DNA from: a virus
Strand: one strand, 5' to 3'
Virus record (IMG/VR): IMGVR_UViG_3300033143_001480
Location: 1-44,874 of that record
DNA length: 44,874 bases
In this document: piece after piece, positions 4,887 to 19,858 of the stretch
Position numbering within the stretch: position 1 is the first letter of the stretch
Layout: each line of letters begins with the position of its first letter
The notes under the pieces: model-generated
Seen by the model: the letters and a program-made list of their open reading frames with translations, nothing else
What the model was told of the DNA's origin: nothing
The model's database searches: none
Program-made: the position numbers and the translations under genes

Positions 4887-4944
4887 TTTAAATTACCTCT
4901 CGAAGAGTGATTAGGTTTACGCTTAGAACCAGAGCTGCCAGTTC

Positions 4945-5361: not shown

Positions 5362-5400
5362 AATGAATCTCCTTAGAAATTAGTGTAAGTAAGCTATGAA

Positions 5401-6144
5401 CTAGAGTAAGAACTTAGAGAAGTCTTGCGCCACCGGTGCTCCTGGAATAGCTGGAGCTTTAGGTGCGAATGCTTCTCCCATGACGGTAATATACCGCTCA
5501 GTCATTTCTGCTAGTTGCGTAGGTGTAGCGTCTGGGAACTGGCCAGCTAGTTGCGTACGGGCAGCTTCCATAATAGGTTTAACAGCGGGATTGGAGAACA
5601 GTGGGTTAGACTCTGCAATGGTGTTAGCAGTAGCTTGGTTGCGGATCATTTCTGGGAGAGCTGCATCTTGTGCTGTCTTCATGCCATTAACAGCTTGTGT
5701 GATCATCTTGTTAGCTGCTAGTGTTGACTGCATTACTGATTGTTGAGCTACCGCGTTGATAGTTTCTGTTAAAGCTGCTACAGCTCCTTCACCGCCTGCA
5801 GTGATAGCTGCTAAGTTCTCAGGAGTAACTGTCTGAGTGAAGTTAGCTTTACCTAAGACTTCTTGTAACTTAGCTGGATCAAGTGCGACTGGAGTTCCGT
5901 CAGGTTTACCAGTAGTGTCTATAGGTTCCCACATTTTCTCAAACTCAGCAAGAGGCGAATTAGGAACAGGGGCTGCTCCAGGGACAGCTGGCGGAGTGAG
6001 TCCGTTAGGTTCAGTTGCAGGCGCAGTAGGTGCAGCAGCTCCTGCGTTATCAGGGATATTACCTGGATTACCTGGTGTTAGTTCAGGAGGTGGAGCTGCT
6101 ACTGGAGTAGGTGTATCGCTGCCGAATAAGTTTAAAAAGCCCAT
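5401..6144 (-). CDS. Scaffolding protein candidate (247 aa)
   Basis: Pro/Ala-rich N-terminus, then a long helical Ala/Gln-rich region. Canonical position between portal and capsid genes. Confidence 0.6.
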   Translation of the reverse strand: MGFLNLFGSDTPTPVAAPPPELTPGNPGNIPDNAGAAAPTAPATEPNGLTPPAVPGAAPVPNSPLAEFEKMWEPIDTTGKPDGTPVALDPAKLQEVLGKANFTQTVTPENLAAITAGGEGAVAALTETINAVAQQSVMQSTLAANKMITQAVNGMKTAQDAALPEMIRNQATANTIAESNPLFSNPAVKPIMEAARTQLAGQFPDATPTQLAEMTERYITVMGEAFAPKAPAIPGAPVAQDFSKFLL

Positions 6145-6147
6145 GGG

Positions 6148-6432
6148 TTATTCCTCTATAGTTTGGTTAGGATCGTTCATTAGTTGCTCAGAAGCATCTG
6201 AGAGTTCTAGTATATAAGATAAGGCTGCTATCTGTCCTGCTAAGGATGCTTCTTGTTGGATAAAGTGCTTAGCGTGCTCAGGATCGAAGACTAGAAGGAG
6301 CTTCTCCTCTGCTACTATTGATAGTCGGTTCTGTATTACTTGCTTCTGGTTTACTGTGAGTATCTGTCCTTGTAACTCCTCTAAGTCTGTCAGTTGGTAA
6401 GATGAAAATGTATTAGGTATTAGGTGTGCCAT
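6148..6432 (-). CDS. Hypothetical head-module protein (94 aa)
   Basis: ORF fills the portal-scaffold gap and ends 3 nt before the scaffold start. Confidence 0.55.
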   Translation of the reverse strand: MAHLIPNTFSSYQLTDLEELQGQILTVNQKQVIQNRLSIVAEEKLLLVFDPEHAKHFIQQEASLAGQIAALSYILELSDASEQLMNDPNQTIEE

Positions 6433-6467
6433 TAGGTGGTAGGTCCTTTCTTGTTATTTGATTCGGT

Positions 6468-8522
6468 TTATATTGCTGGTGATGCTGGTGGAGGTGTCGC
6501 TTCTGTCGCTTCTGTCGCTGCTTCTCTCTGAGGAGACTCTCCGCTATTAGACTCTTCTCCCTCAGGCGCTGGCTTATTCTTAGCAGGAGTATATCCGAAG
6601 TCAGCAGGAAGAGGCTGTGGAGGTAACTTCTCAGGGTCGATACCATTCTCGATTGCAGTAGTAGCAAGTTGCTGCCACATATTAGCTGCTTGCTCATAAG
6701 CTTGCTGCTCAGCAGACTTTTCGAAGTCAGTTATCTTAGCTCCCTGCGTCTTCATGAAGTAAGAGAATAACTGACCTATGTTGTAAGCAGCTCCTATCTG
6801 AGGAGAAGAGCCTATAACTTGTAAGGCTACTGCAAAGGTCTCTCCATTAATAAGTTTTTCTGTAGGTACTAAGCCGTCTGAAATCTTAAAGTTAAGGATA
6901 GCTTTTCGTAACTTTATTGGATCTACCTCTACAGCTATCTGCTTATCTCTATTATATACTGTAGTGCCTCCTTGGTACTGGAGGATATTAATCTTAAGAA
7001 CTTCTTTTAGGGGAGTAAAAACCTGAGCCTCTAGTAAGATAGCTACCATCTGATCGCTACCGTTAGCATTAGACATGACATCTTCATATTCGTGTAAAGT
7101 CTTATTCCCTTTTACGAACTGTCCCTGAGAGGCTTGATTCTGTCCTGAGAGAGTGTTAGCTAACCCTAGTACTTGCTGAATGTTATTCATAGAGAATGAA
7201 GCTTGATCTTCTCTGTAAGGAAACTGATACACAGCATCGGAGATAGTCTTACCGTACGCAGCAGAGCGAACAGGTATCTTAGCTGCACTGTTCGGGGAGT
7301 TAATATGAGCAGCTGTTATACGGGAAGGATCATAAAGGAGTCTGTCTGTAACAGCTCTGCGACGGGAATGGATGATAGAGTTCATTAAACCAGAAGCTAC
7401 TTCCTGGAAAGGAACTACATCTGTAGCTGCTGACTTAGTTTGGTATTCTAAGCCATCTTCTAAAGGCTGTCCTATGAAGATAGGGAGTAAGTTATGTGCA
7501 TTAGTCTGACGCTCACAGTAGATGATATGCTGATCATTGATTATGATTAACTTGTATATCTGTGGAGTGTTAGATTTAGGTACTGCAAGAGAGAACTCAG
7601 AAGGAAGGACTCTGCAGTAGAGAGTAGTTACCTCGTATGAATCCTTATATTGGATATCTTTCTTTAGACTAGATAGTCCTGCCCAAGATAACCAGTTAGA
7701 GCCTTCGTTAGATTCCTTAGGGTTAGTTACCTCTGGGTTAACAGAAGGTACAAAGAAGCCTGTAGTGGAATCTACGGTTACGCCGCTAGAGCCTATGCCA
7801 GATTCGAATGCACTTTTGATGTTAGTAATGATCTTATCAGGAAGAGCTGCTATGAACTGTTTAAGCTCTATGCGAGACATTCTTTCTTTATAACCTGCAA
7901 ACTCTCCTTTGGTATGTACCTCTGTAGGCTTAACCCTAGGATCTACGAAGGTGTTATAAGGATCTAAGCGCTTGACTCTGTTACCTGCCCATATATGCTC
8001 TACTGGCTTGCCCTCTGAGATAGAAGTCTGAACGTCTGTTTCTATCGCAGGAGTTACCTCAGAGACCCAAGTTACTTCCAAGGGAGCGAAGTTATACTTA
8101 AAGCCATCTTGAAAGAATAGGAGAAATTGCTTAGTCCATCCACCTTTTATAGCATTCTCGTCTATTACAGACTCTAGCTGTACAGCTTCGTCCATATACT
8201 TAGGTTCAGCTACTGCTCCAAAGAGAGGAACTCCCGTAAGAAAGACCGATGCTTGGTAGGCTACAGCTGTTCTTACATGAGGAGCTACTACAGGGATGGT
8301 GATATTTTGTAGGCGATCGCTGTTACCAGCCTTGTTAGCTGCCTTGGCTCGGCGCTGTTCTATTGTTAGATCCGTCTCTCTCTGGTAAGCCTTATCTACA
8401 GCTTCCATACGAGAGCGCAGGCCTGAGCGAAAGGTAGATTGGAGTTCTTGAGTCTGCTTGTAGTACTGGATAAAGGATAGTTGGGAGGTAACGGATAGAG
8501 GTACTGAGGTTGAAGCTGCCAT
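6468..8522 (-). CDS. Portal protein candidate (684 aa)
   Basis: Size and position downstream of terL. SD AGGAG lies within the end of the upstream ORF. The acidic/Pro-rich C-terminal tail includes an ATEATEAT repeat. Confidence 0.7.
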   Translation of the reverse strand: MAASTSVPLSVTSQLSFIQYYKQTQELQSTFRSGLRSRMEAVDKAYQRETDLTIEQRRAKAANKAGNSDRLQNITIPVVAPHVRTAVAYQASVFLTGVPLFGAVAEPKYMDEAVQLESVIDENAIKGGWTKQFLLFFQDGFKYNFAPLEVTWVSEVTPAIETDVQTSISEGKPVEHIWAGNRVKRLDPYNTFVDPRVKPTEVHTKGEFAGYKERMSRIELKQFIAALPDKIITNIKSAFESGIGSSGVTVDSTTGFFVPSVNPEVTNPKESNEGSNWLSWAGLSSLKKDIQYKDSYEVTTLYCRVLPSEFSLAVPKSNTPQIYKLIIINDQHIIYCERQTNAHNLLPIFIGQPLEDGLEYQTKSAATDVVPFQEVASGLMNSIIHSRRRAVTDRLLYDPSRITAAHINSPNSAAKIPVRSAAYGKTISDAVYQFPYREDQASFSMNNIQQVLGLANTLSGQNQASQGQFVKGNKTLHEYEDVMSNANGSDQMVAILLEAQVFTPLKEVLKINILQYQGGTTVYNRDKQIAVEVDPIKLRKAILNFKISDGLVPTEKLINGETFAVALQVIGSSPQIGAAYNIGQLFSYFMKTQGAKITDFEKSAEQQAYEQAANMWQQLATTAIENGIDPEKLPPQPLPADFGYTPAKNKPAPEGEESNSGESPQREAATEATEATPPPASPAI

Positions 8523-8527
8523 AAGAA

Positions 8528-8779
8528 CTACTCTCCTGCAGGAATTGTATTGCGTTCGCCGAATACGCCAGCGGAGCAGTGGTAAATATCGTCGTTCCTA
8601 AGATAAACTACGTAATCGCCCACTTCAGGCAGTTCGTAAGCTTTAAAGGTTATTGTGCCTGCCTCTTCCGCCGTCAGTAGGTAAGTAGCTTCTGTGCCCT
8701 CCACCTTATTGATAACATCTGTAGCTTGTATCTTGCGAGCAGTACATATTACTGGCTTGCTTTGGTATTCTTTAAACAT
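8528..8779 (-). CDS. Hypothetical protein (83 aa)
   Basis: ORF between terL and the portal. Its 3' end carries the portal SD. Confidence 0.55.
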   Translation of the reverse strand: MFKEYQSKPVICTARKIQATDVINKVEGTEATYLLTAEEAGTITFKAYELPEVGDYVVYLRNDDIYHCSAGVFGERNTIPAGE

Positions 8780-8800
8780 TTAAGGAGTCCTTTAAGGTAG

Positions 8801-10426
8801 CTAGAAAGCTGAGTTAAAATCTGGTACCTCAAGAGCTTCATACTCCTGAGATTCTATTAGGTTATTAGCTACTACATACTCTCCAAACTCTTCTATCACC
8901 TTAGGTGCATAGGTAAGGAGATCTAGTAAGCCGTCTGTGTTATCTCGTTTAAGAGGGTTAAATCCTGTTATCTGTAGGTGTACTGCAAGCTTAGCTGAGT
9001 CCTTTACGTACATCTCTCCCTGAGCATAAGCTTTAAACATCTCAAGGATCCTAGAGTTCTTAGAGCGAGTACCTGAATAGATTGGCGCAGCTTCTATCCC
9101 TTGTACTCCCATCTGCTTGCATATGAAGTCGAACCAATATAACAGAGAGTATTGATATGCGTTAGATTCTACAGCTATAAGACGACAATTATTTGTAAGA
9201 GCAAGGGTAAGGGCTCTTCTTATGGTTTCTCCTGGAGAGTATCTCCCTTCGTTTAAATCCATTAAGACTGGAGATGCATCGTGAATTTCGAAATAGCCTA
9301 TTGAGACTTCGTCTGCGCCGAGCTTATCGGTAGCAGGATCTATGATAATGAAGTTCCCAGCTGGAATATCTCCTTCAGAGTAAGGTACAGCAGGTAACTT
9401 AGATAGGTCAATAAGATTATTAGCAGTCGCATTCTCATCATTTAGCACCTCTGAGTAAAAGATCTCTGGCTTGCCCATAGCTAGATCATTCTCGAATTCG
9501 CTGATAAGCTGTGCTATAGGCTGTAGGTCTTCCCAGAGAGAGGTTCCATCTGCTAAGATTCCGCCAGCTATGAACTTAACCCACTTAGGATTTGTTTTGA
9601 GCTTACGTAAGAGAGAATGCTTGGTGGGGTACATATTAGCTACGAATAAGAACATGCAGCCATCTGGAGACTTAGCCTTCATAGCTGTACCTACCATCCA
9701 ATCTTCTAACTTGTTAGACTGTAGTTCTGAGTCTGCACACTCTCTGGATTGTATATCCTCGAAGATCATTACATCTGGACGAGAGTTCTTTATATTTAAG
9801 CCTCGTAGAGAGGTCTCTGCACCTAAGCCTGCTAAGGTGATGTTTCTACCTCTGAAGCCGAACTTCTTAACTGCTTGTGTATCTTTAGTTACGCCTAGGC
9901 GCCAGTCTCCGAAGACAGCTTTTATATTAGGTTCATCTAGCATATCTGCAACATCAGCTAGGATATTCTCTGCAAGAGATGCTTTAGCAGAGATGATAAG
10001 AATAAATTTTTTCCTTGTGAATAGAATACAGTATATGATAAAGATTTTCATCAAGGTAGTCTTACCAAAGCCTCGTGGGAGACCTAGTGCTAACTGAGGA
10101 AAGGATCTAGGTTCTTTAGCAAAGCCTGTTAGCCAATCCCAGACTGATTGGAAGACTGGAGGAAAACCAAAGGTGAATATAAGAGGCATGATTAGAGCTG
10201 CTAAGAAGTCCAAATCTTGCTTTGCTAAGGAGGATATCTCTGCAGAGGAAGCTCCTATCTCCTTTATATCGTGCGCTTCTGAGTCTGCATCTGGAGCTTC
10301 ATCAAGATCTGAGAAGGATACAGGAGAGCGGTGTATAGGAGGAGCTACCAAGGTCGCAGGTAACTTCCCTTCTGCATCTGTGCTAGCTGTTCCTCCTAGT
10401 CCATCTAGTAGCTTATTCGAAGGCAT
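8801..10426 (-). CDS. terL: Terminase large subunit (541 aa)
   Basis: Walker A GLPRGFGKTTLMK. Walker B-like DVMIFEDIQ. C-terminal nuclease-type acidic strand FIIIDPATD. Confidence 0.9.
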   Translation of the reverse strand: MPSNKLLDGLGGTASTDAEGKLPATLVAPPIHRSPVSFSDLDEAPDADSEAHDIKEIGASSAEISSLAKQDLDFLAALIMPLIFTFGFPPVFQSVWDWLTGFAKEPRSFPQLALGLPRGFGKTTLMKIFIIYCILFTRKKFILIISAKASLAENILADVADMLDEPNIKAVFGDWRLGVTKDTQAVKKFGFRGRNITLAGLGAETSLRGLNIKNSRPDVMIFEDIQSRECADSELQSNKLEDWMVGTAMKAKSPDGCMFLFVANMYPTKHSLLRKLKTNPKWVKFIAGGILADGTSLWEDLQPIAQLISEFENDLAMGKPEIFYSEVLNDENATANNLIDLSKLPAVPYSEGDIPAGNFIIIDPATDKLGADEVSIGYFEIHDASPVLMDLNEGRYSPGETIRRALTLALTNNCRLIAVESNAYQYSLLYWFDFICKQMGVQGIEAAPIYSGTRSKNSRILEMFKAYAQGEMYVKDSAKLAVHLQITGFNPLKRDNTDGLLDLLTYAPKVIEEFGEYVVANNLIESQEYEALEVPDFNSAF

Positions 10427-10432
10427 AGGAGA

Positions 10433-10657
10433 CTATTCGCAATCCACTTCTTTAGCTATAGAGATAGGTGTCGCTGCTAGAGAGCCTCTTTCTAAGAGAG
10501 AGTCTAACACTCTTCTAGCTGCAGATATATCTGCTAAGATATGAGGAGCTTGTTCTATAAGAACTTGCCTGCCAGCTATTCTCACAGTCTCTGGCTCATC
10601 CTCTAGGGCCATGAAGGCTCTCTGTAAGATCTGCTGTGCTGTCGCTTGTACCATCAT
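10433..10657 (-). CDS. Hypothetical protein (74 aa; alternative start at 10612)
   Basis: Ends 6 nt before the terL ATG, which has no SD of its own, suggesting coupling. The first ATG overlaps the upstream ORF by 62 nt; the internal ATG at 10612 would overlap by 17 nt. Confidence 0.45.
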   Translation of the reverse strand: MMVQATAQQILQRAFMALEDEPETVRIAGRQVLIEQAPHILADISAARRVLDSLLERGSLAATPISIAKEVDCE

Positions 10658-11291
10658 TCTTAGTCTCTTCTATGTGGGTTAGTGCTACTTGGGTTGGTGT
10701 ATCTATAGTTGATGTCGCTTCAGCTTCTTTAGAAGCCTCTTTCTCTTCTTTCTCTTTAGTCTCTTTTAGCAGCTGGTGAGCAGGTAAGGTTAATAACTCT
10801 TGTGTACCAGCCTTTATAACTTGGTTCTTGGTGTTTGTTTGGAACTTCTGGGTTATGATTGTTGGCAGTACTATATTAACTATATTAGCAGAAGATACTG
10901 TAGAATCCGAAGCTGCTTTAGCTCCTCTGCGAGTAGCGCCATTAACTACCTGTATTGCTTTTAGTATCTCTCCTGGCTTAATCATATAGGCTAGAGACTT
11001 CTCTAGTTTAAGAAGAAGCTTATCCTCTAGCGTATCATAAGAGGCATCTCGTTTTGTGTAAGACTGTAGTGACTCATATCGCAGTTCTGACACCTTCTCA
11101 GTAAAGACTGGAGAGGCTAGTAGCTGAGAGATTCTTGATTCTGTTACTCCCAAGGCTGCTGCTACTGAGACTGCTGGTACGCCTGAACCTAATAGAGATA
11201 AGGCGCGATCTTCTATAGAGGAGCCTGTTCCTTTCCCGCTAGGTTGAGGTGTATCTGAAATCTTAGGGGTAGTAGTTGAATTTGGTAGCAT
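10596..11291 (-). CDS. Terminase small subunit candidate with HTH (231 aa)
   Basis: First gene of the late arm, immediately upstream of terL. HTH-like VSVAAALGVTESRISQLL. Confidence 0.5.
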   Translation of the reverse strand: MLPNSTTTPKISDTPQPSGKGTGSSIEDRALSLLGSGVPAVSVAAALGVTESRISQLLASPVFTEKVSELRYESLQSYTKRDASYDTLEDKLLLKLEKSLAYMIKPGEILKAIQVVNGATRRGAKAASDSTVSSANIVNIVLPTIITQKFQTNTKNQVIKAGTQELLTLPAHQLLKETKEKEEKEASKEAEATSTIDTPTQVALTHIEETKNDGTSDSTADLTESLHGPRG

Positions 11292-11554
11292 AGGAGATAT
11301 CTTCTCATAAGAGGCTTAGGCAGGGAAGAGAGGAATCGTAAGAAGGAGCTGGCAGGTAACAGAGGTAAGTGCCTTTCAGGAGAGAGAAGCTAGGTGCGTG
11401 CCTTCTTAGGTATAAGCTTCTTGAAAAAGTTTAGGAAAAATAGGAAGAGTCCTTAGGATAACCTCTCACTCATAACTTAAAAAGGCTTCCACCCCCCTGG
11501 CATAGATATAACTGATGAGAGGTATAAGCTTATAAGCTAGGGTTATAAGGGAGA

Positions 11555-11576
11555 TAGATACTACTAGCGGTATCTA
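11555..11576. promoter_or_regulatory. Inverted repeat TAGATAC-N8-GTATCTA (operator-like)
   Basis: 7-bp perfect arms at 11555-11561 and 11570-11576, about 25 bp upstream of the predicted early -35. Confidence 0.4.
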
Positions 11577-11599
11577 GTTGGTTTATTTAAGCTAGGTGC

Positions 11600-11628
11600 T
11601 TGATTATTCTAAGGAATAGGTATAGTAT
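11600..11628 (+). promoter_or_regulatory. Sigma70-like early promoter candidate
   Basis: TTGATT (11600-11605), 17-nt spacer, TAGTAT (11623-11628), about 85 nt upstream of ATG 11712. Confidence 0.45.
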
Positions 11629-11711
11629 TAGCAGTAGGTAAGGAAAGGATTGACCTAGATATGCCTAGCACCGACTTGGTGCATGAATCTATTTAATACT
11701 GGAGATACAAC

Positions 11712-12470
11712 ATGGATACTAATACACCTAAAGATACACCTAAAGATACACCTACACAAGTAGGCACTAACCTAGATACAGGCGCACCCATAGCTAGTAG
11801 CATACATAGACCTACACTCCCCGAAGGAGCTAGCTTTCTTCCTTATGATACGCAAATAGAACTAGCAGCTAAGGAAGGCTTAAGAGCTGTTAAGTGCTTA
11901 TATAAGATGAACATGAAGACGCAGAAAGCTGCAGCAGAAAACTCTTATATTTATATTCCTGATACGATTACTCCTAAGAAGATAGAAGAGAATCTTACTA
12001 AGCTTATGCCTTATCTTGTCTCTTACCTAAAAGAGCAAGAGGACGCATTAGTTAAAGACTTGCATAAGCTTAAGGTTTCGACTGTTTTCGCTTCTAATCT
12101 CGGGATAAATAAGATCATAGAGCGACTAGAACGAAGCAGTTTAGGTAATAGATTGAACAAAGAAATGATTGAGGCTTGGTTTACTGAGAATGTAGCTGAA
12201 TCTCTGGCTGAGGCATTTGCTACGAAGCTTGGAGTAACTGAGAAATCTAGTGAAGCTGAGTTATCTAAGCTTTCGTCTGTTCTAGAAGTATATAAGATTA
12301 GATTCTCTTCTCTTGCTGGTGGAAAGGTTTCAATGAAAGAAACCGAATGTGATTCTCTGCAAAGAGCGATTTCTATCTCCGATAGCTTAAAAACTCCAAT
12401 TGGTGCAAGATTCTATGCAAGATTAGAAAGCATGAAGAAAGCGCAAGAAGTTGATTTATTAGCTTTATAA
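11712..12470 (+). CDS. First early protein, unknown function (252 aa)
   Basis: SD GGAG lies 8 nt upstream. N-terminal KDTPKDTP repeat. Followed by its own terminator. Confidence 0.75.
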   Translation: MDTNTPKDTPKDTPTQVGTNLDTGAPIASSIHRPTLPEGASFLPYDTQIELAAKEGLRAVKCLYKMNMKTQKAAAENSYIYIPDTITPKKIEENLTKLMPYLVSYLKEQEDALVKDLHKLKVSTVFASNLGINKIIERLERSSLGNRLNKEMIEAWFTENVAESLAEAFATKLGVTEKSSEAELSKLSSVLEVYKIRFSSLAGGKVSMKETECDSLQRAISISDSLKTPIGARFYARLESMKKAQEVDLLAL

Positions 12471-12496
12471 GCATAACTAGCTTTATAAGCATAACT
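12461..12496. repeat. Perfect 18-bp tandem duplication spanning the stop codon of 11712..12470
   Basis: AGCTTTATAAGCATAACT occurs at 12461-12478 and again at 12479-12496. Confidence 0.95.
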
Positions 12497-12516
12497 TGTA
12501 TGAAAAGAAACTCTCT

Positions 12517-12553
12517 AAAAGCCTGTAAGTTTTAATTAGCTTGCAGGCTTTTG
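12517..12553 (+). terminator. Rho-independent terminator (symmetrical A/T flanks, possibly bidirectional)
   Basis: Stem GCCUGUAAG (12521-12529) pairs with CUUGCAGGC (12540-12548), including one G-U. 10-nt loop. A-run before and U-run after the stem. Confidence 0.8.
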
Positions 12554-12568
12554 TAGCTAAGAGGATAA

Positions 12569-12730
12569 ATGAAAACTGGCTTTTTATCCATTAAAGACAA
12601 AAAACCAGAAAACCAAAAAGCCAGGATCGAAAATGGGGTCCGGGGGGGGGTCGATATATTTGTCTCTCTATCTGTATCTAACAGGTTGTGTATTTGTATC
12701 TCTCTTAGCTCTCTTGTATCTCTCTCTTAG
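12569..12730 (+). CDS. Speculative 53-codon ORF containing the G9 tract
   Basis: My translation is MKTGFLSIKDKKPENQKARIENGVRGGVDIFVSLSVSNRLCICISLSSLVSLS*. GAGGA lies only 3-4 nt upstream of the ATG. The C-terminal half is encoded by the GTATCT repeat DNA, so this may be non-coding. Confidence 0.2.
   Translation: MKTGFLSIKDKKPENQKARIENGVRGGVDIFVSLSVSNRLCICISLSSLVSLS
12576..12624. repeat. Perfect 10-bp inverted repeat CTGGCTTTTT / AAAAAGCCAG
   Basis: Arms at 12576-12585 and 12615-12624 with a 29-nt spacer. The right arm is part of AAAAAACCAGAAA..GCCAG, which is mirrored at 13041-13057. Confidence 0.9.
12635..12650. repeat. G-tract GGGGTCCGGGGGGGGG (G4 + G9)
   Basis: Read directly. Flanked by ATCGA / TCGAT. 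Confidence 0.9.
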
Positions 12731-12780
12731 AAGTGTCTATCTTGTAAGTATCTAGTATCTATGTGTTTGTAGGTGTATCT
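12674..12780 (+). repeat. Six direct copies of GTATCT (iteron-like), two as TTGTATCTCTC
   Basis: Exact hexamers start at 12674, 12696, 12716, 12748, 12755 and 12775 in a T/G-rich stretch. Confidence 0.85.
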
Positions 12781-12864
12781 TATTTCATATCTTATTTATT
12801 ATTAAAATAATACACACCCCTAAAACAGACATCAACTAGATATCAGATAGCTAGCTTAGATAGA

Positions 12865-12992
12865 CCTATATACACCCTTCTTACCTAACTACTCCTATAT
12901 ACACCTATTAGCTACCTATAAGCATATACCTACCTATTAGATACAGCTATAGCTACCTATTAGGTACAGCTACCTTATATACTCTTAGGTAC
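12865..12992 (+). repeat. Second iteron family: CCTATATACACC x2, CCTATTAG x3, GCTACCT(A/T)T x4-5, AGATAC/AGGTAC
   Basis: Exact copies: the 12-mer at 12865 and 12894; the 8-mer at 12904, 12933 and 12956; AGATAC at 12939; AGGTAC at 12962 and 12987. Confidence 0.85.
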
Positions 12993-13040
12993 AGGAATAA
13001 AGGTATATACAGAATCCCCATATATGGTATACTTTGGGTT

Positions 13041-13089
13041 CTGGCTTTCTGGTTTTTCAGCCAAAAAGACGTTTCGATCACTTTTTGGC
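13041..13089. repeat. Right-hand boundary repeats: CTGGCTTTCTGGTTTTT plus perfect 9-bp hairpin GCCAAAAAG-N12-CTTTTTGGC
   Basis: 13041-13057 is the reverse complement of AAAAACCAGAAAGCCAG (compare 12599-12624). Hairpin arms lie at 13060-13068 and 13081-13089. Confidence 0.85.
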
Positions 13090-13112
13090 CATTTTGCCAG
13101 AATACCTATAAC
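13085..13112 (+). promoter_or_regulatory. Weak sigma70-like promoter candidate for the main early operon
   Basis: TTGGCC (13085-13090), 16-nt spacer, TATAAC (13107-13112). Overlaps the 13060-13089 hairpin. Confidence 0.3.
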
Positions 13113-13151
13113 ACTCTCTCTAAGAGAGCAACAACTAAGAAGGACACTTAC

Positions 13152-13625
13152 GTGAGTAAAGACCCTAAAGATAAAATCACTCGTATAGCTCTGCCTGCAT
13201 CGTCTATACATTATATACTTAAGATAGCTAAGGAGGACTACATAAGAGAGTCATCTATAGAAGCGTCTACAGTTATAAAGAAGCTTACTCTGAGAGTAGT
13301 CAAAATGGACTTTGGCTTGATAGCTGCGGACTACACTTTGGTAGCACTAGAAGATAGAAAGAGTAACTCTACAAATAAGATAGGTGTAACAGACTTAGGA
13401 GGGGCTGTCATAAACACCTCTCTTAGTAGAGAGGCCTACCCTTCTAATGCTATGTACTGGAAAGAGTGCTATAAGAAGTATATAGAGTCTCCTATAGAGT
13501 GCTCTATATCAGAGATAGACGGGGCTAAAGAACATATGTACCTAGAAGGCTTACTATCTGATACAGAGATGGAAGCTATGGACGCTAAAACTATGGCTAT
13601 GGTTGTAAAGAACCAAGCAAGCTAA
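13152..13625 (+). CDS. Ribbon-helix-helix-like DNA-binding protein candidate (157 aa, GTG start)
   Basis: N-terminus KITRIALPASSIHYILKIAKEDYIRESSIEASTVIKKL fits a strand-helix-helix pattern. AGGA lies 7 nt upstream of the GTG. First gene after the repeat hub. Confidence 0.6.
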   Translation: MSKDPKDKITRIALPASSIHYILKIAKEDYIRESSIEASTVIKKLTLRVVKMDFGLIAADYTLVALEDRKSNSTNKIGVTDLGGAVINTSLSREAYPSNAMYWKECYKKYIESPIECSISEIDGAKEHMYLEGLLSDTEMEAMDAKTMAMVVKNQAS

Positions 13626-13684
13626 AGAACCAAGCAGTATAAACGAAACCGAAACCGAAACTACATAAGAAGGATACGCATGTA

Positions 13685-13888
13685 ATGGATACTATAACGA
13701 AACTGGAAACTATGTACCCTACAGGAATGACTAGCTTACTGGTATTTGTAGCTATAACAATAGCTATAGCTATCATAGCTCATATACATTATAGTAAGCT
13801 TATGAAGAAAGAAATAGATAAGATGTATACAGATTTAAGAGCTAAAAGAGCGAAAGCTGAGAGCGAAGGAGATTCTAAAAATGGCTAA
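13685..13888 (+). CDS. Small single-pass membrane protein (67 aa)
   Basis: Hydrophobic LLVFVAITIAIAIIAHI followed by a Lys/Glu-rich tail. Confidence 0.55.
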   Translation: MDTITKLETMYPTGMTSLLVFVAITIAIAIIAHIHYSKLMKKEIDKMYTDLRAKRAKAESEGDSKNG

Positions 13889-14984
13889 AGTAAACTGTGC
13901 TATATCTGGCCTCACCTTCTCCTGCGATCACCTACCGATCTTTATCCCTAAGAGCGCAGGATACTACCATCCTATATTCGCATTAGATTCTAAGAACCTG
14001 CTACCTCTCTATTCTAAGCATTGCCAAGGGCACCTGACACCTATAGACTCTTATCTCTTGCTCTTGGCTTACTTACACTCTACTGGTAAGGTGGCTTGGA
14101 ATCACCCTTGCTCTCTCTCACCTACAGCACCAGAGACGGTCACCTTTATAGAAAGGAACCTGCGACAGCTAATAGAAGCTATAGAGCTAACAGCTTCTGT
14201 AGATCACCCTTCTTTTAAGCAACCTTCTTACGCTGTGTACTCCGAAAACTCCTCTCTAAAGGAGTTACCTTCTTGGATAGCAGCTTGGACACAGAACCTA
14301 GAGGACTTTAGAAACGGATACAGAGAGCAGAGGAGGCGAGAAAGAATGGTAGCTACAGAGTCTCGCCTCTCTAAAGCTATTCTCTCAGGCGCAGCTCCTT
14401 CTACCTATGCGGCTATCATAGCTACCTGGGCAGATAAGGCTGCTGGGTTTCCACCTGCGAAAGCAGCAGCGTATATGAAAATCATTCGTACCTGCTATAA
14501 CTCTGATAAGATGTTCTCTACGCCACTGTCAGCTATTAAAGAAGTTAAGGCTTACTGCGAAGAGAATATAGAGGTAGGTTCTATACACTTCCATACTCTC
14601 TCAGAAGCTCTGCGAGAAGGGATAGCTAGGCATCAGGACTACCTAGGAATGGGCGCAATAACTCTCTTACCTGTAGGTTTCACAGTAGAAGCTAAGGAGC
14701 TTACTGCTATGAGAGAGAAGGCTACATTAGACTCTCCTAAGAGAGCAGATTACGAGAATGATTTAGATTTTCTGCGAGCTAAGCTTAGGTATAAGGCTGT
14801 AGAACATAACCCTACTGCCGAAGGTCTGCAAGCTGCGACACCTACCCCTAGCTCCCGCGCCAACTCTACCCCTAGTTCTACCCCTAGTTCTATAACAGAA
14901 GAGATAAGAGATATACTCTCTCTGGAAGCTACAGCGTATAACATAGACGACATCGAAGACGACACAGAAGAGGGAGATTTATAA
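13881..14984 (+). CDS. Unknown early protein with Cys/His-rich N-terminus and acidic C-terminal tail (367 aa)
   Basis: N-terminal CAISGLTFSCDH and HCQGH. C-terminal NIDDIEDDTEEGDL. Overlapping start and stop with its neighbours. Confidence 0.75.
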   Translation: MAKVNCAISGLTFSCDHLPIFIPKSAGYYHPIFALDSKNLLPLYSKHCQGHLTPIDSYLLLLAYLHSTGKVAWNHPCSLSPTAPETVTFIERNLRQLIEAIELTASVDHPSFKQPSYAVYSENSSLKELPSWIAAWTQNLEDFRNGYREQRRRERMVATESRLSKAILSGAAPSTYAAIIATWADKAAGFPPAKAAAYMKIIRTCYNSDKMFSTPLSAIKEVKAYCEENIEVGSIHFHTLSEALREGIARHQDYLGMGAITLLPVGFTVEAKELTAMREKATLDSPKRADYENDLDFLRAKLRYKAVEHNPTAEGLQAATPTPSSRANSTPSSTPSSITEEIRDILSLEATAYNIDDIEDDTEEGDL

Positions 14985-15388
14985 TGGATACTTATACAGA
15001 TATACTTAAAAAAGAGAGAGAGCTACCTTTAGGAGCTACAGCAGCTTATAAGAAATACGGAATAGCTAAGAGTAAAGCGTACTACACTATGCACAATAGC
15101 TTCTCTATACCTCTTAACTTGCAACCTATATTCCCTACCTACTACCTCTTGCACTGGGAAGTTAGCTATTTTCGTTCTCTAGTGCAGCTAGGTACAATAG
15201 AGAGAGCAGGTATAGTATACCAGATTATATACTATAGGACAGATCCAATAGCTATAGCTAAGGCTAAGAGTCCTGCTGACTCAGTGTTAGTAAGCTTTAG
15301 AACATTAGCTAAGGAATATGGAGCTATACCTACAGTACTGGTGAAGCTAGGAACAGTTAAGAAAGAAGAGAAAAAGGAGGATATATAA
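14984..15388 (+). CDS. Hypothetical protein, possible HTH DNA-binding (134 aa)
   Basis: TAATG overlap with the upstream gene. HTH-like ATAAYKKYGIAKSKAYYTM. Confidence 0.6.
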   Translation: MDTYTDILKKERELPLGATAAYKKYGIAKSKAYYTMHNSFSIPLNLQPIFPTYYLLHWEVSYFRSLVQLGTIERAGIVYQIIYYRTDPIAIAKAKSPADSVLVSFRTLAKEYGAIPTVLVKLGTVKKEEKKEDI

Positions 15389-15389
15389 G

Positions 15390-17234
15390 ATGGCACTAGA
15401 TATGAAAGTTATGCTAGCGAAAGCTAGAAATCGTAAGGAGAAGCCCCTAGAAAGGGAGAAGACACCGACACCGACACCTGCCGCTCCTATACAAACCATG
15501 CAAGTTCCTAGAGATATGGGTAAGAACCCAGTTATAATAGGATTAGCAGCAAGGTTAGCAGCCTTAAAAACCTCTCCAGAACCTGTGCTAGTTCCCAAAG
15601 AGACTACTATACCAGAAGGTTTCTTAACTAAGAGAGGGATTGATAGTATAGAGATAGTAGATGCTCCAGAGCCTATACCTACAGCAAAGGTAGCTCTCAC
15701 TCATACAGGCATGGACGGTGCTATCATCACCTATAACACAGAGCAGCAAGAGTTCATCTCTCTTATCTCTTCTGGTAAGAGTTGTGTCCTAATAGGAGCA
15801 GCAGGCTCAGGTAAAACTACCTGCTCCCAAGGAGGTACACAAGAGTTAATAGCTAGCGGAGTCATACCTGTTCTTAAGGCAGATGGTCATAAGCACCTTT
15901 CTGATGGTTCTCCAGGGGTTCTTATAATCTCTTATACTCGCCGCGCAGTTAATAACATACGCAAAGTACAGACAGAGGATCTGAAATATAACTGCATAAC
16001 AGCGCATAAGCTCTTAGAGTACTCCCCTGAATATTATGAGCTAATAGACCCTACTACTGGAGACACTAAGAAGACTATGCGCTTTGAACCCTCCCGAAAT
16101 AAGGAGAATCCTCTCCCTCCTTCTATACATACTATAATAGTAGAGGAAGCATCTATGCTCTCCTTAGAACTCTTTGCAGAGATAACAGCAGCCTTAGAGC
16201 ACCCTGTACAGTGGGTGTTCATAGGTGATATACAACAGCTACCGCCTGTATTCGGATCAGCTATCTTAGGCTATAAGATGCTAGAGCTACCTGTAATAGA
16301 GCTTACACAGATATACAGGCAAGCTTTAGAGTCACCTATAATACGCTTAGCGCACCGAATCCTCTCAGGGAAACCTATACCTCTCTCTGAGTACGCTTCT
16401 TGGAAGGTAGAAGGGCAGCTAACTATACACCCTTGGAAAAAGAAACTACACCCTGATACAGCAGTTCTTACGCTCGCAGCTTTCTTTAAAGCAGCCTACG
16501 ATGCAGGAACCTATGACACAGAAGCAGATATGATACTTATACCTTATAATAAGTCCTGCGGCACTATAGAACTTAATAAGCATATAGCTAATCATATAGC
16601 TCGCACCAAAGGGAGAGATACTTACGAAGTAATAGCAGGCTTTACAAAACACTACTTTACTGTAGGAGATAAGGTACTATACGATAAGGAGGATGCAGAG
16701 ATAGTAGAGATACACCGGAACCCAGCTTATACAGGAGCGTCATTTCAACAGGAGTCTAAGCACCTAGATTACTGGGGACATAACCCTAAAGCAGGAGAGG
16801 AGGCAGCAGAGAACTTTGACGGCTCTTTTGGAGATAACGATGATATAGACTTCTTACTAGACCAGGTAGCTAGCTCAGAAGAGAGAGTCACGCAATCTTC
16901 GCACCGAATAGTAGTTAGACTCCTAGACTCTGGTACTTCTCTCGGAGTAGACAAAGCAGCAGATGTTAACGCTCTCTTACACTCTTATGCTCTTACAGTA
17001 CACAAGGCACAAGGTAGTGAATGGAGAAAGGTATTCTTCTGTCTCCATCAATCACATGCTACTATGCTACAGAGAGAGCTTTTATACACTGCTGTAACTA
17101 GAGCAAAGGAGGAACTATATATAATATGCGAGCCAGAGTCTTTTACTAAGGGAATTAGAAGCCAGAAGATTAAAGGTAATACCTTGGATGAAAAAGCACA
17201 ATGGTTTAAAGGTAAAGTAGATAAGAAAGGGTAG
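15390..17234 (+). CDS. SF1 DNA helicase, RecD/Dda-like (614 aa)
   Basis: Motifs: I GAAGSGKTT, II IIVEEASML, III FIGDIQQLPPV, V TVHKAQGSEW, VI LYTAVTRAKEELYI. Strong SD AAGGAGG. About 115-aa low-complexity N-terminal extension. Confidence 0.9.
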   Translation: MALDMKVMLAKARNRKEKPLEREKTPTPTPAAPIQTMQVPRDMGKNPVIIGLAARLAALKTSPEPVLVPKETTIPEGFLTKRGIDSIEIVDAPEPIPTAKVALTHTGMDGAIITYNTEQQEFISLISSGKSCVLIGAAGSGKTTCSQGGTQELIASGVIPVLKADGHKHLSDGSPGVLIISYTRRAVNNIRKVQTEDLKYNCITAHKLLEYSPEYYELIDPTTGDTKKTMRFEPSRNKENPLPPSIHTIIVEEASMLSLELFAEITAALEHPVQWVFIGDIQQLPPVFGSAILGYKMLELPVIELTQIYRQALESPIIRLAHRILSGKPIPLSEYASWKVEGQLTIHPWKKKLHPDTAVLTLAAFFKAAYDAGTYDTEADMILIPYNKSCGTIELNKHIANHIARTKGRDTYEVIAGFTKHYFTVGDKVLYDKEDAEIVEIHRNPAYTGASFQQESKHLDYWGHNPKAGEEAAENFDGSFGDNDDIDFLLDQVASSEERVTQSSHRIVVRLLDSGTSLGVDKAADVNALLHSYALTVHKAQGSEWRKVFFCLHQSHATMLQRELLYTAVTRAKEELYIICEPESFTKGIRSQKIKGNTLDEKAQWFKGKVDKKG

Positions 17235-17266
17235 AAAGACCCTTCTCTCTAAGAAAAAGAAACATC

Positions 17267-17295
17267 TTGACAGAATCTGTCACTTACGCTACTAT
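17267..17295 (+). promoter_or_regulatory. Near-consensus sigma70 promoter
   Basis: TTGACA (17267-17272), 17-nt spacer, TACTAT (17290-17295), about 115 nt upstream of ATG 17410. Confidence 0.65.
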
Positions 17296-17409
17296 ACATA
17301 CTTACTTGCTAAGAACTCACAAGTTCTACAGAACTTAAAAGCCTAGCAGGTAAGTAAATTTCTTAAGAAAGCTACACCCAACTTAAACTTATATAAGGAA
17401 ACAAGTATT

Positions 17410-18156
17410 ATGAACCCAGAAACAGAAGTAGAAAACACGCCAGTAGAGACAGAGACAGCAGCAGAGACTCCTAAGAGTCCGGTGACTATCATAGCTAATA
17501 ACCCTTCAGCGGAAGAAATGAAAGCTATCTGCGAACACATCCAGGTTAACTATGACTTCGATGTAGAAGCTAAGGAAACAAGATTTAACTTTAAAAAGTC
17601 TAAGGACAAAGAGTCTGGTATCGAGACTATCCGTGAATCTGTTGAGTTAGCGATTCCTTTTCCTAGTATGCAGGGTATCATCGCCATCTTAGAGAAAGGA
17701 GGTAAAGGCTTAGACCTTTTACGTGATGCTGTAGAAGGTATTGTAACTGCTCAAGCTCGCGAACTCCTTTATGATGACCTAGAAGCTAATGCAGCTACCT
17801 TTCCGGTAGAGAAGCTATCTTGGGACTTCATTGCTAACATGCCTAAAGCACAGCGTGGTGGAAGTGGTATTGCTAAGGAAGTATGGGAAGACTTCGGTGC
17901 TGATTACATCACAGTGATGATGGAGAAAGGCGGTAAGAACTTAGACCAAGCTACTAAAGCGGCTAAGCTTCTTACTACTAAGCTCTCTAACGCTAAGACT
18001 AACATCCCAGTTCTTAAATTCTTGGTAGAGCAGTTAGCTGTATACGCTGAGAACACCGAGAACTTACAGGATTATAAAGACTGCGTAGAGTTCTTGCTAG
18101 AGAAAGCAGATACTCTTATCAATGTCTCTGCTAAGGATCTGTTAGCAGCATTATAG
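17410..18156 (+). CDS. Acidic early protein of unknown function (248 aa)
   Basis: Has its own promoter and is followed by two long hairpins. Glu/Thr-rich N-terminus. More acidic than basic residues by eye. Confidence 0.75.
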   Translation: MNPETEVENTPVETETAAETPKSPVTIIANNPSAEEMKAICEHIQVNYDFDVEAKETRFNFKKSKDKESGIETIRESVELAIPFPSMQGIIAILEKGGKGLDLLRDAVEGIVTAQARELLYDDLEANAATFPVEKLSWDFIANMPKAQRGGSGIAKEVWEDFGADYITVMMEKGGKNLDQATKAAKLLTTKLSNAKTNIPVLKFLVEQLAVYAENTENLQDYKDCVEFLLEKADTLINVSAKDLLAAL

Positions 18157-18181
18157 ACCTAAGCTACCTCTTTTAACCTAT

Positions 18182-18250
18182 TAGCTATCTTCTTCTTGCT
18201 CTTTACATTAAACTTTCGGCGGTTTATCTAAGAGTAAGAGTTGATAGCTA
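18182..18250 (+). ncRNA. Long imperfect hairpin 1 (RNase III-site-like or terminator-like RNA structure)
   Basis: Outer 8-bp stem TAGCTATC (18182-18189) pairs with GATAGCTA (18243-18250). An internal loop follows, then an inner stem of about 11 bp (18193-18205 with 18229-18240, one bulge, G-U pairs). 23-nt loop. Confidence 0.45.
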
Positions 18251-18258
18251 TCTTTAAA

Positions 18259-18344
18259 AGAAGCTCTTATAGCCCAGCTCCCTGCTACATCAACTCAGTA
18301 CCTCCCTTTTACTGACAGCAGGCCTTCTAGCTATGAGAGCTTCT
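18259..18344 (+). ncRNA. Long imperfect hairpin 2 (RNase III-site-like RNA structure)
   Basis: 15-bp outer stem: 18259-18273 pairs with 18330-18344 (one G-U). Inner stems CCTGCT/AGCAGG (18281-86 / 18317-22) and CAGTA/TACTG (18296-300 / 18310-14). Confidence 0.45.
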
Positions 18345-18393
18345 CTTAAAGATCCCTGAGATCCTAAATCCGCTAATAAGGAGATATAAAGAA

Positions 18394-18681
18394 ATGACAC
18401 AAGCATACAAGAAACCAGTTACTAAGCTTCACGGACTATTTGGAGCAGCAATAGCAGGCTTAGCAGCAACTCTGATGCAGAAGGAGATAAGCTCTAGAAG
18501 AGATACCAGCCAGCCTAAGCGTTATGACACCAAACAGCTTAACTCTTATTATAAGTCTTACAGAAATCGTAAATACACCTCCTCCCGCTCTTATCCTCAC
18601 TCTTCTACTCAAGAAGCAGCTCGCAGAAAGCGACAGCTAGATGCTGGTACTCTTCACTGCAACACCGAACATTACCTGTAG
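18394..18681 (+). CDS. Small basic protein with N-terminal hydrophobic segment (95 aa)
   Basis: SD AAGGAG upstream. GLFGAAIAGLAATLM followed by an Arg/Lys/Ser/Tyr-rich region. Confidence 0.6.
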   Translation: MTQAYKKPVTKLHGLFGAAIAGLAATLMQKEISSRRDTSQPKRYDTKQLNSYYKSYRNRKYTSSRSYPHSSTQEAARRKRQLDAGTLHCNTEHYL

Positions 18682-18687
18682 TACGCT

Positions 18688-18709
18688 CGTAATATACCCG
18701 TAATATACC
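18688..18709. repeat. Perfect 11-bp tandem duplication CGTAATATACC x2 in an intergenic spacer
   Basis: Copies at 18688-18698 and 18699-18709. Confidence 0.95.
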
Positions 18710-18719
18710 TTCTCTAAGA

Positions 18720-18968
18720 ATGCGCCAATACCAGCCTATCTGGAATCAGATAAGAGAGCAGCATACAGCTACTCTTATTGTTCCTTCTTATCTACATAAG
18801 AGGGTCATCCAAGCAGTTCGCGCTGAGAAATGTAGAGATTTAGCCTATAAGCTACTTCTCTCTGAGAAGAGTGTTACATACAAGCTATACGAAGATATAG
18901 ACACAGAGAAGAATACCATCACCTTCACCCTTATAAAGACATCAGATATAGGAATAGAAGACTTATGA
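18720..18968 (+). CDS. Hypothetical protein (82 aa)
   Basis: ORF with a 4-nt overlap to the next gene. No clear SD. Confidence 0.5.
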   Translation: MRQYQPIWNQIREQHTATLIVPSYLHKRVIQAVRAEKCRDLAYKLLLSEKSVTYKLYEDIDTEKNTITFTLIKTSDIGIEDL

Positions 18969-19165
18969 GCACAAAGAAGCTAACTAATATACGATTAGGT
19001 AAGGTAGGAGAGTCCATTGAACTAAGACTCTCTTTTGAAGAGGACAATGTAAACGTATATATCCCTTTAGGTTTAACTAAGAACGAAGTAGCTAACAGGT
19101 TTCAAGAGTTAGCTACTGTCTTATACAGAGAATACTATAAGAAAGAAGAAGGAGAGGAAGAATGA
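18965..19165 (+). CDS. Hypothetical protein (66 aa)
   Basis: ATGA overlaps on both sides. Confidence 0.55.
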   Translation: MSTKKLTNIRLGKVGESIELRLSFEEDNVNVYIPLGLTKNEVANRFQELATVLYREYYKKEEGEEE

Positions 19166-19512
19166 GTAATGAAATAGTTGCAACTACAGCTGTAGACACC
19201 TCTATAGATACAGCTATAGATACAGCTATCGACACCTCCTTTGTACAGCCTGATCAAGCATACCAGATAAGAGAGAAACTCCTAGCTTTAGATGAAATGC
19301 TCTTAGAGAAACTCCCAGGAATAGCTACCCTTCTAAGAGACATACATACAACTCTTAAGAACGATCCTGATACAGTCACTCTTCTTTCTGAGGAGGAGTG
19401 TTCTATCCTAGTAAGAGGGCTTAAGAAGCAAACAGCTACAGAGATAGCTACGGCTGCTGTTAAGAAGAAAGGCGGCAAGGCTATGAAGAACTTAACTGTG
19501 GATGACCTATAA
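19162..19512 (+). CDS. Hypothetical protein with N-terminal (V/I)DT(S/A) x4 repeat (116 aa)
   Basis: Four 12-bp units at 19192-19239; the two inner units are identical. Confidence 0.6.
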   Translation: MSNEIVATTAVDTSIDTAIDTAIDTSFVQPDQAYQIREKLLALDEMLLEKLPGIATLLRDIHTTLKNDPDTVTLLSEEECSILVRGLKKQTATEIATAAVKKKGGKAMKNLTVDDL

Positions 19513-19858
19513 GGAAGAGAGTATGAAAGATTCTATAGAACCTATTCTTATATGGAAAGGATACTCGAAACCCTTAGATGCTTCTGTTACTTTCCACCTC
19601 TTACATACTTGCGAAGCTACAGAAGATACCTCAGCACATCTACACATAGGTTTTCTAGTCTCTTCCTCTAACGGCTCTCACCCTCTGCACAAAGGGGAGC
19701 TGATAATAGCTAAGAAAGATCTTACTAACCCTTCTACACCGATAGCTATGCTTTCTACTGTAGAAGGTGCAATACTAGAAGAGATAGCTATTCAGTTAGC
19801 TGAAGATTTAGAGACAGCTAAATGGGAACAGAATAAGGAAGGGTATGTATGTCATTAG
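19502..19858 (+). CDS. Hypothetical protein (118 aa; more likely starts at 19523, 111 aa)
   Basis: ATG 19523 is preceded by AAGGAAGAG just after the upstream stop. ATG 19502 would overlap the upstream gene by 11 nt. Confidence 0.6.
   Translation: MTYKEESMKDSIEPILIWKGYSKPLDASVTFHLLHTCEATEDTSAHLHIGFLVSSSNGSHPLHKGELIIAKKDLTNPSTPIAMLSTVEGAILEEIAIQLAEDLETAKWEQNKEGYVCH

Follow-up and report, generated by a model that had tools for sequence, protein, structure and literature searches.

Ribbon-helix-helix (RHH) repressors bind arrays of short operators cooperatively, with one dimer per unit, as exemplified by the 8-bp metboxes of MetJ, the ParG sites of TP228 (a 4-bp box followed by a 4-bp spacer) and the omega heptads of pSM19035. 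Replication origins composed of iterons and a DNA-unwinding element are known from lambda ori and plasmid oriV, while dyad viral origins include herpes simplex virus (HSV) oriS, the simian virus 40 (SV40) core origin and P4 ori. Repeat clusters of a comparable layout are found at packaging sites such as P1 pac, in which hexamer arrays flank the cut region, and SPP1 pacL-pacC-pacR. Here we describe the spacer found at positions 12554-13151 of IMG/VR virus record IMGVR_UViG_3300033143_001480, a complete phage genome analysed over its entire length of 44,874 bp (referred to as the window in the rest of the text). Comparison with related phages revealed that this spacer is non-coding, conserved and syntenic, and that its parts form a dyad of fixed layout, in which the right one of two outer repeat arrays coincides with the predicted main sigma-70 promoter of the early genes. 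The element combines known kinds of sites, namely probable repeat-array operators and a dyad core that is most likely either an origin or a genome end, and does not constitute a new category. As a whole, we read it as a cis-acting hub located at the head of the early (replication) operon and carrying both operators and an origin, a reading to which we attach a probability of roughly 35%.

A sequence-only reading of the window had described this spacer as a functional, dyad-organised hub and listed a series of repeats within it. Direct inspection of the sequence supports this description, since all of these repeats are present at the positions given and far exceed chance. The claim that it is the sole large region devoid of open reading frames (ORFs) had to be dropped, as a 78-aa ORF on the minus strand (12975-13211) overlaps it and a second long spacer of 421 bp is found at 11292-11711. 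We retrieved 82 related loci, which bear L labels hereafter. Synteny is maintained throughout these loci in the order terL(-), terS-like(-), 252-aa gene, spacer, further genes including the 157-aa gene, 367-aa gene and helicase. An equivalent spacer occupies the same syntenic position in about 50 related uncultured phages as well as in the cultured phages 119X, PaP2 and Tiera, and thus does not behave as a unit that is present in some relatives and absent from others. The ORF-free spacer that follows the homolog of the 252-aa gene typically measures 410-1100 bp, and 31 of 49 loci have a spacer of 400 bp or more; most of the shorter ones are interrupted by nothing but short mechanical ORFs. In L010 (2283-3026), L014 and Tiera (OQ067478, 44514-45185), the 252-aa homolog or its positional counterpart is inverted, yet the element stays with the early genes, placing the spacer exactly at the point where late and early genes diverge.

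The order of the parts is also common to the relatives. The left half comprises a terminator hairpin, the left array, a G/C box, a T-rich arm and an A/T-rich centre, and the right half a G4 or C4 box (followed by ATACATCAA in the closer relatives), an A-rich arm, a G/C box abutting TTGACA and the right array. The same layout is found in cultured 119X, PaP2, TF17 and PaMx41, and in a looser form in Tiera and Mel-JY34. The distant cyanophage relative Mel-JY34 has, ahead of its first gene, a spacer of about 550 bp (PP438425, 43884-44433) in which an A/T-rich centre flanked by an inverted repeat of about 25 bp precedes TTGACA-17-TATGGT. The spacer of 119X, PaP2, PaMx41 and TF17 (Jamesmcgillvirus, Fredfastierviridae), for which we know of no functional description, is about 600 bp long and, like that of the window, lies between genes upstream of the terminase and the first early gene. 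It contains mirrored CCTTGG(G/C)C arrays, a G/C run, TATCCCC opposed to GGGGATA, and an A/T centre with GGGGG boxes and TATCAATATG. This common layout is maintained despite a complete lack of DNA similarity between the two spacers, the primase and helicase sharing 34% and 35% identity, respectively, and the 252-aa protein having no match with gp01.

In the window, the left array (12576-12624) consists of CTGGCTTTTT (12576-12585) followed by AACCAGAA, AACCAAAA and AGCCAG in an 8-bp register (12603-12624). The right array (13041-13100) mirrors it and consists of CTGGCTTT and CTGGTTTT in the same 8-bp register (13041-13057), the palindrome GCCAAAAAG-N12-CTTTTTGGC (13060-13089) and GCCAG (13096-13100). 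The sequence-only reading had presented as separate features an inverted repeat formed by CTGGCTTTTT and AAAAAGCCAG (12615-12624), an outer imperfect pair (12600-12618 and 13039-13057, 89% complementary) and the hairpin at 13060-13089. All three were confirmed, but they are in fact pieces of these two arrays. Individual units appear as CCAG, CCAA and CCAG at 12604, 12612 and 12620 and as CTGG at 13041 and 13049, with inverted copies near each. The two arrays are inverted relative to each other and 417 bp apart, compared to 300-450 bp in relatives, and their extended words CTGG[CT]TTT (three of three genome copies) and AAA[AG]CCAG (two of two) are confined to the spacer. The inner edge of the left array is marked by a G-run box, GGGGTCCGGGGGGGGG (12635-12650), which was also part of the initial description, contains both GGGGTC of the genome and has GGGGTGGCCCCCCCC as its counterpart at the equivalent place in 119X. 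Of the six GGGGG found in the genome, five fall in the G9 run of the spacer, and homopolymers are altogether 3-4 times rarer than base composition predicts (observed/expected: AAAAA, 33/92; TTTTT, 24/86; CCCCC, 5/21; GGGGG, 6/18).

We then searched for mirrored arrays, defined as an identical 5-mer present at least twice at an exact spacing of 8 bp with its reverse complement arranged likewise 150-650 bp away. Such arrays were detected in 23 of 50 distinct related spacers and in none of 186 coding controls (1-kb segments from the same loci). The repeated word is specific to each lineage (TGGCA, TGACA, AGTCA/CAGTC/ACAGT, GTCTA/GACCG, CATTG or CTAAC, and CTGGC/GCCAG in the window), and many of these words are variations on TGNCA. 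A sigma-54 promoter was considered for the TGGCA units and rejected because GG and GC are 3 nt too close to each other. The register and the mirror layout are constant while the word drifts, therefore suggesting co-evolution with a phage-encoded, sequence-specific protein, as such pairs predict. The word of each array would then represent the immunity specificity of a co-evolving repressor/operator pair.

The position of the arrays relative to the early promoter points in the same direction. In nearly all relatives, the top plus-strand site returned by a position-weight scan is TTGACA-16/17-(C/T)ATAAT, located 96-192 bp to the right of the core, with array units falling within the spacer of the promoter, its -10 element and the first 40-60 nt of the transcript. 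Where relatives have CCCC-TTGACA-17-CATAAT, the window has the candidate early promoter TATACA-16-TATACT preceded by an upstream TG (extended -10) on the plus strand (13006-13033). Because the homologous position holds only this sequence, the early promoter of the window is assigned mainly by positional homology. A second candidate, TTGGCC-16-TATAAC, is found at approximately 13085-13112. Array units lie just downstream of the TGgTATACT -10 element, so that the right array covers the start and the leader of the predicted early transcript, and no conserved promoter is associated with the left array. Among the proposals of the sequence-only reading, that of a bank of operators or promoters gained most from the comparison, given that the arrays lie on the early promoter in relatives. 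In a search for the array-binding protein by co-variation, L055 and L010, which both carry TGACA, had no small protein in common within the retrieved loci. We conclude that the arrays are probably operators for a phage repressor that acts on the early promoter.

The arrays resemble those bound by MetJ, ParG and omega, which also consist of short head-to-tail units, both direct and inverted, set in a fixed register of 7-8 bp on a promoter. They differ from them in that no RHH gene was found, that two mirror arrays separated by 300-450 bp bracket a dyad core, and that the TGNCA-like unit varies between lineages. By analogy, we propose that the arrays may work like RHH operators; we claim no membership in this group, since no RHH domain was found in the early ORFs scanned with Pfam and the profile of the 157-aa protein has no relative in PDB.

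Between the arrays lies an inner dyad composed of two arms of opposite bias. The left arm (12655-12791, plus strand) contains nine TATCT, including six exact GTATCT (12674, 12696, 12716, 12748, 12755 and 12775) where 0.65 would be expected for the region's share of the genome, and the GTATCT/TATCT copies are mostly spaced by 20-22 or 32 bp. This arm had been called T/G-rich; it is T-rich (49%), with only 15% of G. It is followed by a centre of 21 nt made exclusively of A and T (12792-12812) that contains TATTAT-N4-ATAATA and is a candidate point of DNA unwinding or cutting, and by a core (12813-12835, plus strand) composed of the C box CACACCCC (12813-12820), an A-rich spacer and ACATCAA (12829-12835). 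The right arm (12836-13005, plus strand; A 36%, C 26%, G 10%) contains four AGATA, two AGGTAC, two CCTATATAC, three CCTATTAG (12904, 12933 and 12956; three of the four copies of the genome are within the spacer) and three GCTACCT. The purine/pyrimidine flip proposed at the centre does not describe this change of bias accurately (A+G makes up 34% of the left arm and 46% of the right arm), as what actually flips is T to A along with the keto content. No other G+T skew flip in the 44.9-kb window is as strong as the one at 12790 (0.63, standard deviation 0.13, about 5 standard deviations).

All nine TATCT are left of the centre and all four AGATA are right of it. The same orientation was observed across 32 distinct spacers, in which the ratio of TATC to GATA is 108:35 in left halves and 26:77 in right halves. 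The centre is equally recurrent: relatives have a 20-mer containing 16-20 A/T (17-20 in all but one) at a relative position of 0.43 ± 0.12 between the arrays. No other DNA of the spacer is as well conserved as the core (95% identity over 22 nt to L023 and L024). Its box reads CACCCC in some relatives and GTGGGG at the same place in others, and because it switches strand in this manner, a promoter using it would have no fixed direction. The minus strand of the core carries a promoter-like TTGATG-17-TATTAT that points left and recurs in 5-6 relatives; on the plus strand, TAAAAT followed by the G/C box is also promoter-like. An integration host factor (IHF) site (WATCAANNNNTTR) was considered at ACATCAA and discarded, as the resemblance is limited to a half-site, the consensus is unmet within one mismatch and the window shows no enrichment of the pattern. 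The right part of the direct terminal repeat of T7 (NC_001604), tgtctctctgtgtccctatctgttacag, resembles tgtctctctatctgtatctaacag at 12660-12685 in the left arm, a similarity that may be coincidental.

This anatomy is reminiscent of iteron and dyad origins, in which a pure A/T stretch is flanked by multiple short repeats resembling binding sites, and in particular of HSV oriS and SV40, in which the sites are inverted from one side to the other and the element lies in a promoter region. The anatomical part of the iteron and unwinding-element origin put forward by the sequence-only reading has stood, with multiple short repeats in opposite orientations (nine TATCT on the left, AGATA/AGGTAC on the right) adjacent to a 21-nt pure A/T stretch; the skew and the initiator have not followed. 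We tentatively assign the inner dyad as a replication origin, with odds that we place slightly below even. The phage encodes its own replication set, comprising a DUF3987 primase-helicase, a Dda-like helicase and DNA polymerase A.

In the mechanism that we propose, a phage-encoded protein would bind the outer arrays side by side, with one unit per 8 bp, like MetJ, ParG or omega. On the right array, this protein would shut off the early promoter. The left array, which is inverted, devoid of promoter and 417 bp away, would act as an auxiliary operator that pairs with the right array, thereby looping out the inner DNA; the existence of an inverted, promoter-less partner is what suggests looping. 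The looped inner dyad would be the site of duplex opening for the start of replication. Its outward-facing TATC/GATA repeats would position the phage helicase and primase on both sides of the A/T centre, the G/C boxes would bound the pure A/T 21-mer, and transcription from the promoter-like sequences of the core would possibly help the opening. The T4 origins ori(uvsY) and ori(34) consist of a promoter and a downstream unwinding element, and likewise the predicted TTGATG-17-TATTAT would fire into the A/T-only stretch. The hub differs from them in that the direction is not conserved, the G/C box being flipped among relatives, and in that the RNA would not be purine-rich.

Several observations weigh against this reading of the spacer as operators and origin. 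The cumulative GC skew, which had been proposed as a check, is lowest at about 2.8 kb and highest at about 28 kb, and shows no inflection at 12.8 kb, where it is still rising. The minimum falls within late genes and the maximum (about 28.3 kb) at a convergent junction, although skew gives little guidance in phages. The sign of the GC skew is opposite between the minus-strand genes at 3-11 kb and those at 28.7-44.7 kb. Neither Pfam nor PHROGs revealed a gene for a Rep-, O- or DnaA-like initiator, and the DUF3987 primase-helicase gene is 12 kb away from the spacer. The search for a DNA-binding protein was negative, in that no RHH or helix-turn-helix domain turned up among the early ORFs covered by the Pfam scans. 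The neighbouring 157-, 252- and 367-aa proteins have no match in Pfam, PHROG or the sequences of PDB, and Foldseek found no match in PDB for the AlphaFold models of the 252-aa protein (predicted local distance difference test score, pLDDT, of 79) and the 367-aa protein (pLDDT of 82). Within the window itself, the arrays are degenerate and the early promoter (TATACA-16-TATACT) is weak. Unlike known origins, the hub has no recognised initiator and no skew support, is not inside an initiator gene as in lambda, and contains repeats of 5-6 bp that are irregularly spaced. Finally, repeat arrays and an A/T centre also fit a packaging or end site.

According to this alternative, to which we give odds only a little below those of the origin, the inner dyad would instead be where the genome ends or is packaged, whether as a concatemer junction, a terminal repeat or a pac site. 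The TATC/GATA repeats on both sides would be recognised by the terminase, whose cut would fall in the A/T centre or beside it, the outer arrays would remain operators, and the A/C-rich right arm together with its array and promoter would form the leading end, the first to enter the cell. In podoviruses with fixed ends, early promoters are generally near the first-entering end, which counts for this alternative. So does the T7 concatemer junction, where the T/G-rich end of the terminal repeat flips to an A/C-rich CCTAAAG array exactly at the terminase cut site, the host RNA polymerase early promoters A1-A3 beginning about 160 bp past this array, after the T7 promoter phiOL. Similarly, the right arm of the window has ACCTAT(T/A)AG repeats ahead of the early promoter, in the same relative place as the T7 array, and G/C boxes are found in both. 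Unlike the hub, T7 has repeats that all run in one direction, no A/T-only centre, no mirrored 8-bp arrays and an unrelated terminase. P1 pac and SPP1 pac, which we also count in favour, resemble the hub in that short repeats are clustered to either side of a central cut region, beside packaging genes and promoters, with the difference that the 252-aa gene separates the hub from the small-terminase gene. The spacer is bounded by terS/terL (plus the 252-aa gene) on one side and by the first early gene on the other, and lies at the divergence point in L010, L014 and Tiera, a location that also fits.

The ends of the cultured relatives are part of the same argument. The GenBank records of 119X, PaP2 and PaMx41, produced by three laboratories, were opened within 1 nt of each other in the equivalent spacer, about 20 nt from the A/T centre and the TATCAATATG core and 360-380 nt from the nearest gene; the record of TF17 runs through this opening point without duplication. 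The genome of PaMx41 is reportedly linear and terminally redundant. For Shea, another phage of the 119X type, terminally redundant ends were reported by PhageTerm (PMC13348215). On the other hand, the three records may simply have been made colinear with one another, and those of PaP2 and 119X have no terminal duplication. Moreover, it is in the 14 nt at the 119X/PaP2 junction that these otherwise near-identical genomes differ most. This segment exists as two very different alleles, CCCTTATATAAGTG in 119X and PaMx41 and TATGTATATCAGGC in TF17, with a close variant of the latter in PaP2 (L084-L089, L094-L095). Because the first and last 114 bases of the window (1-114 and 44761-44874) are identical, its assembly is circular (or circularly closed), with a length of about 44,760 bp. 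This circle passes through the spacer, and both copies of the 114-bp overlap lie within structural genes. None of the genome-length contigs from relatives starts in the spacer, and only about 2-3 of about 27 incomplete ones end in or beside it, which is about the chance rate and shows no enrichment of ends. The large terminase is nearest to Mu-like headful enzymes and not to T7-like ones.

The origin and genome-end readings are not mutually exclusive. A 'caged' module can be conceived, in which the repressor arrays would bracket and loop out an origin or end site, enabling a single protein to switch both early transcription and replication or processing; we regard this combination as unlikely. 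Shea forms turbid plaques and gives rise to superinfection-resistant, non-integrated carriers although it lacks any lysogeny gene (PMC13348215). This carrier behaviour requires a repressor/operator pair and an origin somewhere in the genome, and we count it in favour of the hub as operators and origin.

Less probable still is that the spacer serves transcription control only and is neither an origin nor an end. The A/T centre would then hold divergent promoters, the arrays would be operators or roadblocks, and the arms would offer host nucleoid proteins or a phage activator either upstream sites or DNA that bends readily. The promoter-like sequences on both strands of the core and the conserved early promoter are consistent with this possibility, as are the outward-reading terminator-like hairpins of both blocks and the A>T or T>A bias of each arm, which matches that of outward-reading coding strands. 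However, a conserved dyad of about 400 bp far exceeds what known promoter upstream regions need, the strand switching of the G/C box in the core leaves no fixed promoter direction, the IHF consensus is unmet within one mismatch, and most relatives have no gene that a leftward transcript could serve.

That the arms encode one or two non-coding RNAs is highly improbable. Such RNAs would be a leftward transcript of about 220 nt, from the core promoter to the hairpin at 12608-12576, or a long hairpin formed by the two arms. This idea would be in keeping with the promoter-like site and the terminator-like hairpin with its T-run (12608-12576), both on the minus strand, and with the marginally stable fold of that strand (z = -2.5). 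The plus-strand fold was no better than shuffled sequences (z = -0.2), the arms are not colinear complements, and their sequences cannot be aligned between relatives, in which only the type and orientation of the repeats are kept. No Rfam family reached its gathering score and matches at E ≤ 1 were at chance level; no tRNA or transfer-messenger RNA was found either. Hidden small proteins were also sought and rejected, tblastx of the spacer against 83 related loci having returned only the conserved DNA core. Lastly, although the outer inverted repeats bracket about 420 bp, the suggestion of an insertion resembling a miniature inverted-repeat transposable element is excluded because every relative examined, cultured ones included and with protein identities as low as 25-30%, carries the spacer at the same syntenic position, and it is further contradicted by the absence of a second copy in the genome, by motifs unique to the spacer locus and by 'terminal repeats' that are 8-bp-register arrays overlapping a promoter.

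Returning to the hub as a set of probable operators and a candidate origin, two further elements mark its left fringe. An exact tandem duplication of 18 bp, TAGCTTTATAAGCATAAC twice (12460-12495, plus strand), spans the stop codon of the 252-aa gene. Short tandem repeats occur at the same spot in relatives (AATACTT three times in L018, TGCAATGA three times in L027, and L047), and the duplication may be a further binding site. Next to it, the hairpin AAAAGCCTGTAAG-N10-CTTGCAGGCTTTT (12517-12552), which lies between an A-run and a T-run, has an equivalent after the homologous gene in relatives and is probably a bidirectional terminator that closes the 252-aa gene.

On the left flank, the 252-aa gene (11712-12470, plus strand) is conserved in the family and inverted in L010, L014 and Tiera. 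On the right, the first early gene (13152-13625, plus strand) codes for a protein of 157 aa from a GTG start codon preceded by the ribosome-binding site AAGAAGGA (13137-13144). The sequence-only reading had described its product as RHH-like, which is not borne out, since the protein has no Pfam or PHROG match and a profile built from 14 homologs finds nothing in PDB. A word-indexed homolog search with this protein returned only itself. Its homologs in L007 (296-760) and L004 (4281-4718) have low-complexity N-termini, (PN)n and (NIN)n, respectively, followed by a conserved KYRPxLT...LAPFQAKI motif. The 367-aa protein (13881-14984) has an N-terminal CAISG motif, an acidic tail and a confident, all-helical model. 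It has at least 235 metagenomic homologs, many of them on contigs of 43-46 kb, and 119X gp56 is a possible, very distant homolog (E = 9e-4).

The genome is otherwise organised in three blocks of genes. A minus-strand block (364-11291) contains structural and packaging genes, including those for the major capsid protein, the portal, the large terminase (8801-10426) and a small-terminase-like protein of 231 aa. The plus-strand block (11712-28608) begins with the 252-aa gene and the spacer, followed by the 157-, 67-, 367- and 134-aa genes, and continues with genes for the Dda-like helicase, a PD-(D/E)XK exonuclease, Sak4, DNA polymerase A, the DUF3987 primase-helicase and a DHH phosphoesterase. 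Late genes occupy the minus strand from 28695 to 44752. Among them, an ORF of 1849 aa (28695-34244, minus strand) matches only a PHROG of unknown function and has neither a Pfam domain nor a relative among PDB sequences. We considered whether it could be a virion RNA polymerase with the arm repeats as its promoters and rejected this idea, as there is no domain evidence for it and the early promoter is of the sigma-70 type. No DNA match to positions 12000-14000 was found in a search of 50,697 phage records, and single-protein searches of IMG/VR found no close relative. By protein, the nearest cultured phages (31-40% identity) are EBPR podovirus 3, Polaromonas phage Tiera, Aeromonas phage P5 and the Pseudomonas 119X/PaP2/PaMx41 group (Fredfastierviridae). 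The phage is an uncultured podovirus-like phage of about 44.8 kb that is distantly related to the Fredfastierviridae.

Among the non-coding features of a large phage family known almost only from metagenomes, the element is the main landmark, and cultured relatives allow its predicted parts to be tested. Precise coordinates are now available for the predicted early promoter, its operators and the origin or end site. The comparison also carries a caution, in that iterons and an A/T centre in a phage spacer should not be read as an origin before the genome ends have been checked. The lineage-specific words set in a constant 8-bp register look like a natural series of repressor/operator specificities, and the arrays could supply orthogonal regulatory parts. 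Such specificities could explain the turbid plaques, superinfection resistance and episomal carriage of a cultured relative that has no integrase. If the arrays do bracket and loop out an origin or end site, the module would be an immunity and carrier-state (pseudolysogeny) switch that operates without an integrase, and the word of its arrays would define immunity or incompatibility specificity.

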